Sequence record: OP114733
Source of the DNA: Escherichia phage vB_EcoM-pEB20
Direction: 5' to 3' (one strand)
DNA length: 64,000 nt
The notes beneath the pieces are model-generated. The model had not been told where the DNA came from and made no database searches. It saw only the letters and a list, made by a program, of their open reading frames with translations. Made by a program: the position numbers and the translations under genes. Positions 5,833-10,323 of the stretch are shown here, one piece after another. The stretch's first letter is position 1, and every line of letters begins with the position of its first letter.

Positions 5833-6093
5833 ATGAAAATGTATCAAGAATTTATCACTGAAGCAGATGCCAAAGGTCCTAAATTTAAAGTTAAAGCTTT
5901 CATTGGTGATGCGGAAGACTTTGGCTCATTAAAACGTAATGGGTATTCTTTCTTAGGTGGCAATGGTAAAGAAATCAACACCTATGCAAAACGTAGTGAA
6001 ATTGCTTATGTTGTAGCAAGCCCTAAAGTAGATGTTGACGATATTGGATACGATTTTAACAACTTCGGAATTATTTCTGGCGGTAAAGATTAA
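5833..6093 (+). CDS. internal-protein-like with CTS MKMYQEFITE
   Basis: Start taken at M23 of ORF 5767 (after denV stop, AAGGAAA RBS). Confidence 0.6.
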   Translation: MKMYQEFITEADAKGPKFKVKAFIGDAEDFGSLKRNGYSFLGGNGKEINTYAKRSEIAYVVASPKVDVDDIGYDFNNFGIISGGKD

Positions 6094-6157
6094 ATTGTTT
6101 ACGCTTAAGTATTAATATGGTATAATTACTCTATCAAAACAAACAAGGAAACAAAAA

Positions 6158-6472
6158 ATGAAAACGTATAAAGAATTTATTGCAGAATCCGCCAACCAAC
6201 GCGTTGAAGGTGGTTATATTTGGATTGAACAAGTTGAGCCACCGAGCCGCACTTCTACAGGTAAATGGAAAATTACTGTTGACGGTCCTGGCGGTAAACG
6301 TAGGACTCTTAAAGAAATTAACGGGTACTATGAAGAAGCTCTTTCGGATGCAGGAACTTACATGATGCAAATCATGATTAAAAACCCTGAAAACCGTTTT
6401 GCAGCTAAAGTCTTCCGCCGTATTGGTAATAAACTTTATGATGCATACTCTAAAAACTTCCCTAAAGAATAA
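6158..6472 (+). CDS. internal-protein-like with CTS MKTYKEFIAE
   Basis: ORF track; CTS-like N-terminus. Confidence 0.65.
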   Translation: MKTYKEFIAESANQRVEGGYIWIEQVEPPSRTSTGKWKITVDGPGGKRRTLKEINGYYEEALSDAGTYMMQIMIKNPENRFAAKVFRRIGNKLYDAYSKNFPKE

Positions 6473-6497
6473 CATAAATTAAAACAATAGGAACAAA

Positions 6498-6827
6498 ATG
6501 AAAACATATCAGGAGTTTATCACTGAAGTTACATTATCTGCGGAACAGAAAGCTGCTATCGAAGAAGGTAAAAATCCCAAAGTAACATATAAAGTAAATA
6601 GTAAAGGCGTTTTTGATGGCTTGGTTCAAGACCCTGAATTGAAAAAAGCTCTTTCTAAAACTAATGCGTACTTTGCTCCTAAATTTAACACAGCCGGTGT
6701 ACTTATTGGATTGGATGTATTCAACTCTAAAGGTGTTCTATCTAATGCCTTTGGTTATGCCGCTAACAAAATTACCAAAGCCGCATGGGAATCCAATACC
6801 AAACAAGCTCAAAAGCCTAGAGTATAA
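6498..6827 (+). CDS. internal-protein-like with CTS MKTYQEFITE
   Basis: ORF track; CTS-like N-terminus. Confidence 0.65.
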   Translation: MKTYQEFITEVTLSAEQKAAIEEGKNPKVTYKVNSKGVFDGLVQDPELKKALSKTNAYFAPKFNTAGVLIGLDVFNSKGVLSNAFGYAANKITKAAWESNTKQAQKPRV

Positions 6828-6999
6828 TTCTTGCCTAATAAATGGAAACGCAACCTCTCCTCATGAACGTCGAGTCCTCTGAGTGATGTACCTTTTCCAA
6901 CCTGTAATAAGGTCGAGCGCAATGCGGTAATGGGTTTACATAGCGAGTCGAAGGACCTAACATGTGCCACGGAATGGCCCAAACCTTAAGAGAAATAAT

Positions 7000-7539
7000 A
7001 TGAGAACATTTTTAACTGGACCTTATCTATCCCTGATGAATGCTTTTACACACCATTCTGATGCTAGAGTAGAAGAAATTTGTAAGAACGGTTATGTCCC
7101 GCCATTTGAAGACGTACTCAAGCAGTACTGCACACTTCGTTTAGACGGCGGCCGACAATCAGGTAAATCAATTGCTGTGACTAACTTTGCTGCTAATTGG
7201 CTGTATGATGGTGGAACAGTTATTGTTCTTTCTAATACTTCAGCTTATGCTAAAATTTCTGCTGGCAACATTAAAAAAGAATTTTCTCGTTATTCTAGCG
7301 ATGATATTCGATTCCGTTTATTTACTGATTCTGTTCGTAGTTTTATTGGCAATGAAGGTTCTAAATTCCGTGGATTAACGCTTTCTCGTATTCTGTATAT
7401 AATTGACGAGCCTATTAAAGCTCCTGATATGGATAAGATTTACAATGTACATATTAAAACAGTCCAACACTGTTGCAAAAGCAAATATTGCATCGGCGGT
7501 AATGCTCGTCCTCAATTTTTTGTGATTGGAATGCAATGA
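7000..7539 (+). CDS. hypothetical protein with Walker-A-like GGRQSGKS
   Basis: Start at M13 of ORF 6964 after AGAGAAATAAT; P-loop-like motif. Confidence 0.5.
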   Translation: MRTFLTGPYLSLMNAFTHHSDARVEEICKNGYVPPFEDVLKQYCTLRLDGGRQSGKSIAVTNFAANWLYDGGTVIVLSNTSAYAKISAGNIKKEFSRYSSDDIRFRLFTDSVRSFIGNEGSKFRGLTLSRILYIIDEPIKAPDMDKIYNVHIKTVQHCCKSKYCIGGNARPQFFVIGMQ

Positions 7540-7844
7540 TGACAACTATTGAAGTTTTTGAGTATTGTTATAACAGCCCAGTATGCAATAAAAGGGCTCT
7601 TGTAGAAAATTACGAGATTTACCATTTTAAACCTAAACGATACCGTTTGACTAAAGGTCCGTTCGCAGGGCAGCAGGTTCTTTGTACTGCTCCTAATGCA
7701 CGGTTGATGACTAGTATTCCGCATTTCAAAATGGAATTTATTGACGGGCCATTTAAGGGATTAATCACTCAAAGTTTAATGGCGTTTAATTCCGACCCAT
7801 TTTTGATTAAAGAAAAAACTTGGATAAATTTATTTTCTAATTGA
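7536..7844 (+). CDS. hypothetical protein
   Basis: ORF track; overlaps upstream stop. Confidence 0.5.
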   Translation: MMTTIEVFEYCYNSPVCNKRALVENYEIYHFKPKRYRLTKGPFAGQQVLCTAPNARLMTSIPHFKMEFIDGPFKGLITQSLMAFNSDPFLIKEKTWINLFSN

Positions 7845-7850
7845 GGTTAT

Positions 7851-8213
7851 ATGAAAGCATATCAAATTCTTGAAGGTACACATAAAGGCACTATTTATTT
7901 TGAAGATGGTACTCAAGCCCGGATTATTGTCTCTAAAACTTTTAAAGAAGACGCTATTGTAGACCCAGAAATTTTCTACGGTTTGCATGCCCGTGAAATT
8001 GAAATTGAACATCAACCTAAAGTTAAAATTGAAGGTGGTCAACATCTGAATGTTAACGTTCTGCGTCGTGAAACTCTAGAAGATGCAGTTAAGCATCCGG
8101 AAAAATATCCGCAGCTGACCATCCGTGTATCCGGTTATGCAGTTCGCTTTAACTCTCTGACTCCGGAACAGCAGCGCGACGTTATCGCTCGCACCTTTAC
8201 TGAGAGTCTATAA
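7851..8213 (+). CDS. autonomous glycyl-radical cofactor (GrcA/YfiD-like; T4 Y06I-type)
   Basis: C-terminal [29 protein letters not shown] glycyl radical motif, near identical to E. coli GrcA as recalled. Confidence 0.85.
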
Positions 8214-8437
8214 TGGCTAAATTGATTATAGAAGGGTCTGAAGATGTTTTAAAATGTTTTGCCGCCTGGTTTAGTTGCTCAGGCGAGCAATCATTCACTG
8301 AAGCATTTAGAACGGGTGATATTACTGGAAAATATCCGACAACCGATATCACTGTACGTGGATATGGTATTAATGAGCCTATCCAATTGGTCGAATATGA
8401 CCTTGCCACCGATGAGGAAATTCCTTATGTCGATTGA
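8213..8437 (+). CDS. hypothetical protein
   Basis: ORF track. Confidence 0.5.
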   Translation: MAKLIIEGSEDVLKCFAAWFSCSGEQSFTEAFRTGDITGKYPTTDITVRGYGINEPIQLVEYDLATDEEIPYVD

Positions 8438-8693
8438 AGACATCAAAGGCTACAAGCCGCATACCGATGATAAAATCGGTAAAGTGAACGCTATTAAAGA
8501 TGCAGAAGTCCGTCTTGGATTGTTGTTTGATGCTCTGATTGAAGAAGCATATATCTTGAAAGAAAATGAAACAGAGCAACAAACCAAAGAAGATATGGAT
8601 GCAGTGCAGGCTCTTAAGTATGCTAAGCAACATCTAAAAGAAGCCAGCATGTGGGCGTGTCGTGCAGTATTTCGACCTGAGGAAAAATACTAA
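8427..8693 (+). CDS. hypothetical protein
   Basis: Start at M57 of ORF 8259, GAGGAAA RBS 6 nt upstream. Confidence 0.5.
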   Translation: MSIEDIKGYKPHTDDKIGKVNAIKDAEVRLGLLFDALIEEAYILKENETEQQTKEDMDAVQALKYAKQHLKEASMWACRAVFRPEEKY

Positions 8694-8908
8694 TGGCTTC
8701 TACTATTACTGGGTTATTGGACTTTCAAGAAAAGGTCAACAAAATTTGTAGTGAATACTTAAAGTATCTTGAAGAAGACCTTGAAGATTGTAAGGAAGAA
8801 GGCGAAGAAGACTATGCTGACCAGCGTCGACGCCAAATCGAAGAGATGAGGCATTTCGCCAATATAGTATCTAAAGAATCTTGGGCTTTAACTCCATTTT
8901 ATCAATAA
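8693..8908 (+). CDS. hypothetical acidic protein
   Basis: ORF track. Confidence 0.5.
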   Translation: MASTITGLLDFQEKVNKICSEYLKYLEEDLEDCKEEGEEDYADQRRRQIEEMRHFANIVSKESWALTPFYQ

Positions 8909-8912
8909 AGTA

Positions 8913-8960
8913 GTTTACTTCTCCTCTAGTTGTGTTACTATAGACCTGTCAACTAGAGGA
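8913..8960 (+). promoter_or_regulatory. early promoter within 11-bp perfect inverted repeat (PeSL-like); right arm carries SD
   Basis: GTTTAC 8913-8918; arms TCCTCTAGTTG 8922-8932 and CAACTAGAGGA 8950-8960. Confidence 0.6.
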
Positions 8961-8969
8961 GAAATCAAA

Positions 8970-9428
8970 ATGACTATCAATTCAGACGTTTTTATCCGCC
9001 GTAATAAACTCCGTCGAATCTTTGAAACGGAGTTCCGCAAAATAAATGCCGGTATAAAAGATGCTGCAAAGTCTCTTGGACTACCAGGCTTTCATATCAA
9101 GTATTCTCAACATCTCTTAGATCGTGCCATCCAGAGAGAAATAGATGAGAATTACGTTTTTGAATTATTTCATAAAGTAAAAAATCACGTTAAAGAAGTT
9201 GCAGAATTTTTGTCAATGCCGGCACGTCCAGATGTTGATGAAGATTTTGTCGAAGGTGTCGAGTATCGTCCAGGCCGTTTAGAAATAACTGACGGAAATC
9301 TTTGGTTAGGACTTACAGTTTGTCGCGAAAATCCGGCATTCAAAATGAAGACTCTTCAATGCAGAATGGCTATTATTAACAGTAAACGACTACCAGGAAA
9401 AGCTTCTAAAGCAGTGATTAAAATCTAG
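8970..9428 (+). CDS. regB: RegB endoribonuclease (cleaves GGAG in early mRNAs)
   Basis: MTINSDVFIRRNKLRR..YSQHLLDRAIQREIDE..RLPGKASKAVIK resembles T4 RegB as recalled; 152 aa; synteny. Confidence 0.7.
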   Translation: MTINSDVFIRRNKLRRIFETEFRKINAGIKDAAKSLGLPGFHIKYSQHLLDRAIQREIDENYVFELFHKVKNHVKEVAEFLSMPARPDVDEDFVEGVEYRPGRLEITDGNLWLGLTVCRENPAFKMKTLQCRMAIINSKRLPGKASKAVIKI

Positions 9429-9436
9429 AGGTAAAC

Positions 9437-9979
9437 ATGAGAAAAGCACTACTCGCTGGTCTATTTGCTCTTTCATTATCAGCACATAGCTCCGAGCATA
9501 CTTTTAGTAATGTCCAACTCGATAACTTGAATTATGCTTATCAGTTTGGGGAACAGTTTTCTAAGGACGGAAAATTTAAAACGCATGAAAATATGCATAA
9601 GAAAGGACTTGGATACATAATGGCCGCAATACTATGGCAGGAATCATCCGCCGGTATTAATCTTAAAGATAAGAAAGGTCACCATGCGTATGGAATGTTC
9701 CAAAATTATCTACCAACAATGAGGGCAAGAATTAACCAGCTTGGTTATAATATGACTGATGCCCAAATTAAGAAAATGCTATCTAAGCGGTCTAATTCAG
9801 CCAGATGGGCTTATATCGAATTTTCTTATTGGTTAAATATACATAACGGGGATATAAGAAAAGCTATATCCTCATATAATGCGGGATGGAAGACAAGTGC
9901 TGGAAGTAAATATGCTTCTGAAGTCCTAGAAAAGGCTAATTACCTTAAATCAAATAAACTACTGGAAATAAAAGAATGA
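9437..9979 (+). CDS. secreted lytic-transglycosylase-like protein (SLT motif ES...AYGMFQ) with signal peptide
   Basis: N-terminal signal peptide MRKALLAGLFALSLSAHS; QESSAG..AYGMFQ matches SLT catalytic pattern. Confidence 0.6.
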   Translation: MRKALLAGLFALSLSAHSSEHTFSNVQLDNLNYAYQFGEQFSKDGKFKTHENMHKKGLGYIMAAILWQESSAGINLKDKKGHHAYGMFQNYLPTMRARINQLGYNMTDAQIKKMLSKRSNSARWAYIEFSYWLNIHNGDIRKAISSYNAGWKTSAGSKYASEVLEKANYLKSNKLLEIKE

Positions 9980-10323
9980 CCAAAATGTTGGCTTTAATAG
10001 TTGGCTTGGTTTCATTTAACGCTCTTGCTAATACTACATATACTGATGTAACGGAGTATACAAACAGAACGGCGTCTGATTATTGCGGTAAAAGTCAAGA
10101 GTGTAAAGTAGATTTTTCACAAAAATTGTTATATGCGTATAAAGACGGAGAAAAAGATGGGGCGTCTAGTAGGTTCAAGGCGTCTACCTTAATTAAAAGA
10201 TACTATAAAAAATGGCAAATATTAGAATGCTCGGTGGCGGAACCTAAAGATAAGGCAGCATGCAATTCTATGGTGGACCGTCTAGTTGACTCTTATAATA
10301 GAGGACTTGCAGCAAGTGATTAA
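9976..10323 (+). CDS. small secreted protein (signal peptide, 4 Cys)
   Basis: MTKMLALIVGLVSFNALA signal peptide; 115 aa. Confidence 0.55.
   Translation: MTKMLALIVGLVSFNALANTTYTDVTEYTNRTASDYCGKSQECKVDFSQKLLYAYKDGEKDGASSRFKASTLIKRYYKKWQILECSVAEPKDKAACNSMVDRLVDSYNRGLAASD

Follow-up and report, generated by a model that had tools for sequence, protein, structure and literature searches.

The window analysed here is a 64,000-nucleotide (nt) stretch of Escherichia phage vB_EcoM-pEB20 (sequence record OP114733; positions count from its first letter). This phage is a Mosigvirus, a T4-like coliphage, and at 7851–8213 the window carries a gene, here called phage grcA, for a homolog of the host's glycyl radical cofactor GrcA. 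The gene is the ortholog of T4 vs.6. It seems not to be a captured host gene but an old gene of the phage, in which a conversion tract of host origin takes up exactly the glycyl radical domain. Its parts, all on the plus strand, are as follows.

7851..8213, +, phage grcA coding sequence, 120 amino acids (aa); an ATG open reading frame (ORF) recognised by Pfam, PDB and synteny with T4 vs.6
7843..7846, +, GAGG ribosome-binding site, 4 nt 5' of the grcA ATG; read from the sequence
7851..8030, +, grcA 5' half, of phage lineage, codons 1–60; from differences to E. coli versus Karamvirus, and composition
8031..8201, +, probable host-derived conversion patch, codons 61–117, glycyl radical domain; from nt identity, GC content and megablast
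8133..8135, +, GGT codon for Gly95 in RVSGYAV; from alignments to GrcA 6owr and PflB 1h16
8202..8213, +, phage-type last three codons and stop, GAG AGT CTA TAA; from alignments and the ORF list

An earlier note on this DNA, made from the letters of the window alone (the original prediction), had drawn attention to this ORF and quoted a GrcA peptide from it, and both proved real: the 120-aa ATG frame has its GAGG site and contains the peptide. Pfam Gly_radical matches residues 60–101 of the product (E = 2.1e-18), its best match among solved structures is E. coli GrcA (6owr, E = 1.9e-42), and the next is PflB (1h16), whose last 64 residues (696–759) align to phage residues 57–120. The product is a standalone protein of about 14 kDa with a C-terminal glycyl radical domain homologous to the PflB C-terminus. 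The conserved radical-glycine motif RVSGYAV forms its residues 92–98, and Gly95 aligns with the glycyl-radical Gly734 of PflB and with the equivalent glycine of GrcA, counted as Gly102 from the alignment. PHROG 1209, the orthologous group of T4 vs.6, matches over the full length (5.2e-63), and the exact protein is present in NCBI as the GrcA of Shigella phage SHSML-52-1.

The T4 homolog vs.6 (AF158101, 63557–63919) is 93.9% identical in nt sequence; both proteins have 120 aa, of which 114 are identical, and the T4 protein is UniProt P13316 (GRCA_BPT4). We take P13316 to be the former Y06I, an identification of our own, since no search output linked the two names; Y06I was reportedly studied by Wagner et al. 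in 2001 (BBRC 285:456). By blastn, T4 denV-vs.8-vs.7-vs.6-vs.5-vs.4-vs.3-regB-vs.1 is the collinear counterpart of the region; the gene resembles vs.6 over its full length and stands, as annotated in T4, APCEc01 and PST, between the homologs of vs.7 and vs.5 in the denV–regB early region. The T4 gene is likewise a mosaic with an E. coli-like patch. The two proteins differ at six amino acids, five of them in the N-terminal half and the sixth R73H in T4; in the patch the window has four synonymous changes, private or genus-level, where T4 has one non-synonymous change instead, and the last codon is CTA in the window and TTG in T4. Identity to the Mosigvirus phages AV115, APCEc01 and phiC120 is 97–98%. 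Homologs of phage grcA occur in 1,506 phage records, T5-like and jumbo phages included, and 648 phage records are at least 90% identical to the window gene. According to PMC1524935, vs.6 is one of only eleven ORFs of unknown function conserved across T4 and five divergent T4-like genomes.

According to PMC8683613, T4 Y06I and E. coli YfiD (GrcA) receive a radical from the pyruvate formate-lyase activating enzyme (PFL-AE) and then form a complex with oxygen-cleaved pyruvate formate-lyase (PFL), whose activity is restored; the activated domain, with its radical on the RVSGYAV glycine, replaces the fragment lost when oxygen cleaves PflB at its radical site, Gly734. By orthology to the T4 protein, the window protein probably works like T4 Y06I and E. 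coli GrcA, and like the latter it would be expected to use the activase PflA and to have oxygen-cleaved PflB as its target. The statement in the original prediction that a T4 homolog repairs PFL thus holds for vs.6, if P13316 is Y06I as we assume. Neither the gene nor what its product does biochemically is new, and the window adds no new system.

The two halves of the protein relate to E. coli GrcA (YfiD; 6owr, TIGR04365) in very different ways. In a codon alignment phage residues 61–120, RVSGYAV included, are 100% identical to E. coli residues 68–127 and the N-terminal 60 residues are weakly similar, a contrast that had been noticed from the protein sequence alone; the N-terminal half is distantly related and 7 residues shorter, and it is an old, diverged homolog of the GrcA N-terminus. 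The phage gene stands in a lytic-phage early-gene cluster, unlike E. coli grcA, which lies between ung and eamB. The original prediction took the near-identity of the proteins as a sign of recent horizontal capture. By itself it is no sign of recency: from E. coli to Haemophilus, across the Enterobacterales and Pasteurellaceae, the last 60 residues of GrcA hardly vary. Synonymous sites, unlike the "host-likeness" of a protein, do inform on how recent a transfer is. We therefore give the DNA comparison for codons 61–117 (8031–8201, 171 nt, about 43 synonymous sites), with synonymous divergence as dS. A search of genome contigs supplied host grcA loci, of which it listed the best 80; K. pneumoniae was not among them, and its grcA was taken from PLSDB, where a 5.37-Mb K. 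pneumoniae chromosome stands as 'plasmid unnamed2' (CP125156.1). The K. aerogenes gene (PLSDB LR134122.1) is frameshifted and was left out.

Window versus E. coli grcA: 4/171 differences, all synonymous; dS 0.10
T4 versus E. coli grcA: 1/171 difference; dS 0.00
IMG/VR phages L092 (Mosigvirus), L093 and L094 (Tequatrovirus) versus E. coli grcA: 0/171
E. coli versus Citrobacter amalonaticus: 13 differences; dS 0.38
E. coli versus K. pneumoniae: about 21 differences; dS 0.60
E. coli versus Salmonella: about 29 differences; dS 1.13

The nucleotide alignment to host grcA that the original prediction had proposed as a check, with low identity as the outcome that would count against it, thus gave 96–98% over the 3' half. 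The four differences between window and E. coli lie at 8045, 8051, 8078 and 8192, and the longest exact run is 113 nt (8079–8191). In a neighbor-joining (NJ) tree of the tract the coliphage patches (Tequatrovirus and Mosigvirus) fall within the Escherichia clade (bootstrap 181/200), and when all 64 kb of the window were compared by megablast with 5,426 complete E. coli genomes, 8029–8221 was the single match. Low dS together with nesting inside Escherichia indicates that recently transferred host DNA is present. Constraint on the protein does not account for this nucleotide identity, because phage copies that encode the same protein have dS above 1.5: Cronobacter phage GAP161 has the same 57 residues and a dS of 1.58 to E. 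coli, and the patch of Klebsiella phage phiKp13 encodes a protein identical to K. pneumoniae GrcA at a dS of 2.2 to K. pneumoniae. Krischvirus MIZ6 and KFS-EC and T5-like BF23 are 41, 55 and 42 nt, respectively, from E. coli grcA, and the IMG/VR lineages outside the T4 and Mosigvirus types are all 29–55 nt from the nearest host gene in the panel.

Identity to the host gene begins abruptly at 8029–8031, where the phage reads ...GTT AAA ATT / GAA GGT GGT... and the host ...GTT CGC GTT / GAA GGT GGT.... Upstream, 95 of 180 positions differ from E. coli and 42 of 180 from Karamvirus, and synonymous sites are saturated relative to the host; of the codons that encode the same amino acid as in E. coli, 7 of 17 upstream and 4 of 57 within the patch carry a synonymous difference (p = 0.002). 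In a triplet test of window, Karamvirus and E. coli, informative sites favour the phage relative 63:10 in the 5' half, and in the patch the ratio is 2:37 (Fisher p = 5e-18). The 5' half is also clearly related to the Jiaodavirus copies. Downstream, the last three codons GAG AGT CTA are common to the Jiaodavirus, Slopekvirus and Pseudotevenvirus copies, where the host has GAA AGC CTG. Composition changes with ancestry: the patch has a GC content of 0.485 against 0.372 for the window, which puts it in the top 0.1% of 171-nt windows, and its GC at third codon positions is 0.386, compared with 0.333 and 0.183, respectively, for the 5' half. The Karamvirus, Jiaodavirus, Pseudotevenvirus and Slopekvirus copies share the 5' half, the last codons and the gene position, but lack the E. 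coli-like patch. Since only an internal 171-nt tract is host-like, and the 5' half is saturated and shared among phages, the gene as a whole is not a capture; of the recent horizontal capture that had been proposed, the recent host DNA stands, inside Escherichia, and what arrived was a patch in an old phage gene. Because the phage GrcA genes are mosaics, whole-gene trees of phage grcA will mislead.

The patch follows the host. The last 183 nt of K. pneumoniae grcA match 106 phage records at 95–99% identity, and the top matches listed are all Jiaodavirus-type T4-like phages, nearly all isolated on Klebsiella. In the Jiaodavirus phages Nispero, KP17 and PSE-D1, 5 of the 171 patch positions depart from K. 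pneumoniae and 20–22 from E. coli; their first 37 patch codons are identical to K. pneumoniae, and the apparent boundaries are those of the coliphages. K. pneumoniae and Jiaodavirus patches group together in the NJ tree (bootstrap 157/200). Since there are both Escherichia-type and Klebsiella-type patches, at least two independent host-to-phage events are needed. In Yersinia phage PST the patch differs by 2 nt from the grcA of E. coli and by 29 nt from that of Yersinia; in Salmonella phage PSE-D1 it differs by 5 nt from K. pneumoniae and by 24 nt from Salmonella. Both patches reflect the evolutionary host of the phage lineage, not the host of isolation.

Divergence in the 5' half and in the patch is decoupled among phages. 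Between T4-type and Mosigvirus-type alleles some 12 differences, 7 of them synonymous, are fixed in the 5' half, and the patch has none (Poisson P about 0.0014); T4 and Nami are 6 nt apart in the 5' half, with patches 1 and 10 nt from E. coli; and between Nispero and Phi_KR8 the 5' half has 2 synonymous differences where the patch has 10 (p = 0.03). This pattern fits repeated conversion. Three patch variants coincide with host alleles: AAT at 8049–8051 with a segregating allele of E. coli 382634_2f, and TCT (APCEc01) and GTA (Nami) with alleles of Escherichia sp. MOD1-EC7003. Such small numbers could be chance or could reflect several donor alleles.

Distances between host patches agree with how the hosts are related and with the host 5' half, in the tree the phage patches form short twigs within the clades of E. 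coli and K. pneumoniae, and the composition of the patch is host-like, with 3 of the 4 window-specific changes going towards A/T. These observations together point to transfer from host to phage. The opposite direction, in which bacteria received the 3' half of grcA from phages, has a precedent of sorts in the two-way host–phage exchange reported for cyanophage psbA in PMC1484495; it has very little credibility here, given that the phage patches are twigs within host clades and that a patch GC of 0.485 with host-like codon choice stands in a phage of 37% GC.

The explanation that we consider very probable is that the gene is the Mosigvirus ortholog of vs.6, with GrcA function by orthology, and that this old phage gene received a recent Escherichia grcA patch by gene conversion, more than once. 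The host activase PflA (PFL-AE) would install the radical on Gly95, and the activated C-terminal domain would dock onto PflB cleaved by oxygen at Gly734 and restore PFL activity. As the phage shuts off host gene expression, the infected cell presumably can no longer make its own GrcA, and the phage-encoded spare part may keep up fermentative production of acetyl-CoA and formate in microaerobic habitats such as the gut. The 171-nt patch would have been copied from chromosomal grcA by homologous (homeologous) recombination, with the old phage copy supplying the flanking homology. Conversion could arise because that copy is still some 80% identical to host grcA in the part for the radical domain, which may be enough for the very active T4 recombination system acting on host DNA fragments. 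Because the encoded protein is unchanged, such events would be neutral or slightly favourable. The T4-like phages that infect Klebsiella would have obtained their Klebsiella-derived patch, with the same apparent boundaries, in the same way. The analysis itself shows that the gene is a mosaic, that its patch falls within host clades and that the patch follows the host; the mechanism of recombination, the direction of transfer and the gain for the phage are inferred from this. The broader proposition, that the radical half of vs.6 is repeatedly overwritten by the grcA of the host in which the phage replicates, so that a lytic phage gene and its host homolog undergo ongoing concerted evolution through homeologous recombination, we hold to be somewhat better than an even bet.

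Several points weigh against this explanation. The patch is short, which makes event counts and dating rough, and Poisson, binomial and Fisher tests on 0–12 differences are indicative only. The function assigned to the protein depends on its orthology to T4 Y06I, and its NCBIfam TIGR04365 score of 158.6 bits lies below the 170-bit equivalog cut-off; the shortfall arises because the N-terminal half is divergent, and RefSeq names the phage orthologs "autonomous glycyl radical cofactor GrcA" despite it. T4 degrades host DNA, and recombination of the phage with the host chromosome is for that reason plausible, though no more than plausible. That no patch differences are fixed between the coliphage genera could come from phages passing the patch among themselves, instead of from two conversions by the host gene. 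Moreover, between T4 and the window the whole of vs.6, its 5' half included (about 92%), is better conserved than its flanks (65–80%), from which it follows that phage-to-phage exchange also plays a part. These last points lead to the alternative that each host genus gave rise to a single conversion and that recombination among co-infecting T-even phages then spread the patch or all of vs.6. The excess of vs.6 identity (patch 96–100%) over the flanking vs.7 and vs.5 suggests exchange between genera, and the identical apparent boundaries in all coliphage copies agree with it. The fixed differences in the 5' half, to which the final codon (CTA versus TTG) is added, have no counterpart in the patch, and exchange between phages would therefore have to be confined to the patch; furthermore, the AAT, TCT and GTA variants match segregating Escherichia alleles and hint, in small numbers, at several donors. 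We regard this alternative as possible but rather unlikely.

The remaining alternatives fare worse. Recent capture of the whole host grcA followed by fast divergence of its N-terminus would explain the 96–98% identity of the 3' half, and the N-terminal half is still recognisably GrcA-homologous (EARCIVAKAGFAEDEVV in the alignment) and could have evolved fast if disordered, as the GrcA N-terminus is described in PMC13450708. Nevertheless we find it highly improbable, in view of the saturation of the 5' half next to a patch with dS 0.10, the sharp break at 8030/8031, the sharing of 5' half, last codons and position with four phage genera that lack the E. coli-like patch, and the conservation of vs.6 across divergent T4-like genomes (PMC1524935). 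That there was no transfer at all, and that selection on codon usage or messenger RNA structure kept the nucleotide identity, might be suggested by the near-invariance of the C-terminal 60 residues in Enterobacterales and Pasteurellaceae, and grcA is a highly expressed host gene; such selection is hardly believable beside same-protein phage copies (GAP161, phiKp13) with dS of 1.6–2.2 to host genes, the distances of Krischvirus (41–55 nt) and BF23 (42 nt) from E. coli grcA, and Klebsiella phage patches that match Klebsiella-specific synonymous variants. A different role for the protein, in repair or modulation of the phage anaerobic ribonucleotide reductase NrdD or as a PflA decoy, is very unlikely. 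Nolan et al. 2006 suggested nucleotide metabolism because NrdD, too, has the Gly_radical domain (PMC1524935), and an in vivo vs.6 phenotype was not found in the searched literature. The radical domain, however, is identical to that of GrcA, its 64 residues align to PflB 696–759 and not to NrdD, and PMC8683613 reports for T4 Y06I both activation by PFL-AE and restoration of cleaved PFL. An assembly chimera or contamination with host reads has the bare presence of host-identical DNA in its favour and can practically be dismissed, as the same in-frame mosaic is found in the T4 reference and in hundreds of independently sequenced phages, the 648 records at 90% or more among them.

Conversion of vs.6 by host grcA has its closest described evolutionary counterpart in the cyanophage photosystem genes psbA and psbD, for which intragenic recombination between host and phage was reportedly described by Zeidner in 2005. 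In PMC1484495 (Sullivan 2006), intragenic host–phage recombination in psbA and psbD of T4-like cyanophages leaves patchy G+C and phage sequences that cluster by host. Both cases have a host-like metabolic gene in T4-like phages, segments exchanged with the host copy, and G+C patchiness, and vs.6 displays the same marks of a psbA-type mosaic: an abrupt change of relatedness, nesting in a host-species clade and a patch of host-like GC. The vs.6 case is the cleaner one. Its patch is a single tract with sharp limits, up to 100% identical to the gene of a named host species, it occurs in strictly lytic enterobacterial phages that include the T4 reference, and its direction is apparently host to phage only. 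In the searched literature, which lay mostly outside subscription journals, we found no earlier description of a vs.6/grcA mosaic or of a host-tracking patch, a weak sign of novelty. The interest of the locus lies in an unusually clean, recent transfer from host to phage, sharply delimited, with perfect identity over up to 171 nt, and seen for two host genera in hundreds of genomes; strictly virulent T-even phages, the T4 reference strain included, would recently have recombined with the host chromosome at a shared gene. If the patch reliably follows the host, it would mark the recent host genus of a phage, and if ongoing overwriting is real, it would be a natural and datable record of that genus for a phage lineage, as well as a natural assay of host-DNA uptake and of rates of host-to-phage recombination in virulent phages.

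Phages outside this group also encode small standalone proteins with a C-terminal glycyl radical domain, among them T5-like BF23 (ORF trn 2.21), Krischvirus and jumbo phages. Their N-termini are unrelated to the T4 type, and their radical-domain DNA is 29–55 nt (of 171–183) from every sampled host gene, with no recent host patch. Krischvirus MIZ6 and KFS-EC, both E. coli phages, are identical in their N-terminal 78 residues and clearly different in their radical-domain tracts (41 and 55 nt, and 5 and 12 amino acids, from E. coli); that tract too looks mosaic, with a donor outside those sampled. In Klebsiella phage KPV15 (NC_055715) one nt is missing from a T-run in the 5' half of the vs.6 ortholog, and the RefSeq record splits the gene into two ORFs, of which the second is named as a GrcA of 51 aa; the deletion is either a sequencing error or the mark of a pseudogene. 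The IMG/VR contigs L109–L114 and L120 (90–150 kb) encode GrcA homologs of 130–137 aa whose N-terminus (SIWLIE.NKARCLVAKE) is much nearer to bacterial GrcA and whose tract groups with Haemophilus/Pasteurellaceae grcA at a distance of 30–39 nt, which suggests that phages of another host family acquired the gene separately and earlier. Finally, contigs L119 (IMGVR_UViG_2706794630_000006) and L160–L169 include several with full-length host-type genes, namely a Yersinia-like grcA, 16 nt from Yersinia artesiana, and pflB 3' ends; they are probably host DNA or prophage flanks, not phage GrcA genes.

The genes next to phage grcA in the window, which the original prediction had called unknown, are indeed so by the searches made here, and the two immediate neighbours are as follows.

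7536..7844, +, vs.7-like ORF, upstream neighbour, no assigned function; about 40–80% nt identity to T4
8213..8437, +, vs.5-like ORF, downstream neighbour, no assigned function; about 65–75% nt identity to T4

The GAGG site of grcA overlaps the TGA stop (7842–7844) of the vs.7-like ORF, and the grcA stop overlaps the ATG (8213–8215) of the vs.5-like gene. The vs.7-like flank is far more diverged from T4 than grcA is. The vs.8-, vs.7- and vs.5-like proteins match no Pfam or NCBIfam family and only PHROGs of 'unknown function', plus one weak P-loop/terminase-like match of the vs.8-like protein, and in the same searches we found no functional link between these neighbours and GrcA. Two reverse-strand ORFs that overlap grcA (7830–8045 and 8197–8409) are mechanical reading frames without support and were set aside. 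A scan of 6300–9500 gave 9 promoter-like and 2 terminator-like sites, not above shuffled sequence, and no expression signal can be claimed from them; Rfam had no match in 6000–10000 at E up to 0.1, and there is in that respect no sign of an RNA element constraining the DNA.

Some minor features of the region were also seen. The vs.8-like protein (6964–7539; PHROG 1488, unknown function) has a P-loop-like motif, GGRQSGKS, and a weak match (6e-05) to the terminase large subunit family PHROG_2, and may be a P-loop nucleoside triphosphatase. Within its ORF, identity to T4 reaches about 98% at 7000–7090 (59/60 in each of two successive sliding windows), where the rest of the ORF is at 75–90% and the next gene drops to 40–60%; this second island of unusually high conservation has no megablast match to E. 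coli. GC rises to 0.50 at 6860–6979, between the ORF at 6498–6827 and the vs.8-like ORF, in sequence that is without an Rfam match (E up to 0.1). Upstream of regB, 8912–8975 is 84.6% identical to the non-syntenic T4 ipII–denV intergenic sequence upstream of denV, and may be a repeated intergenic control element.

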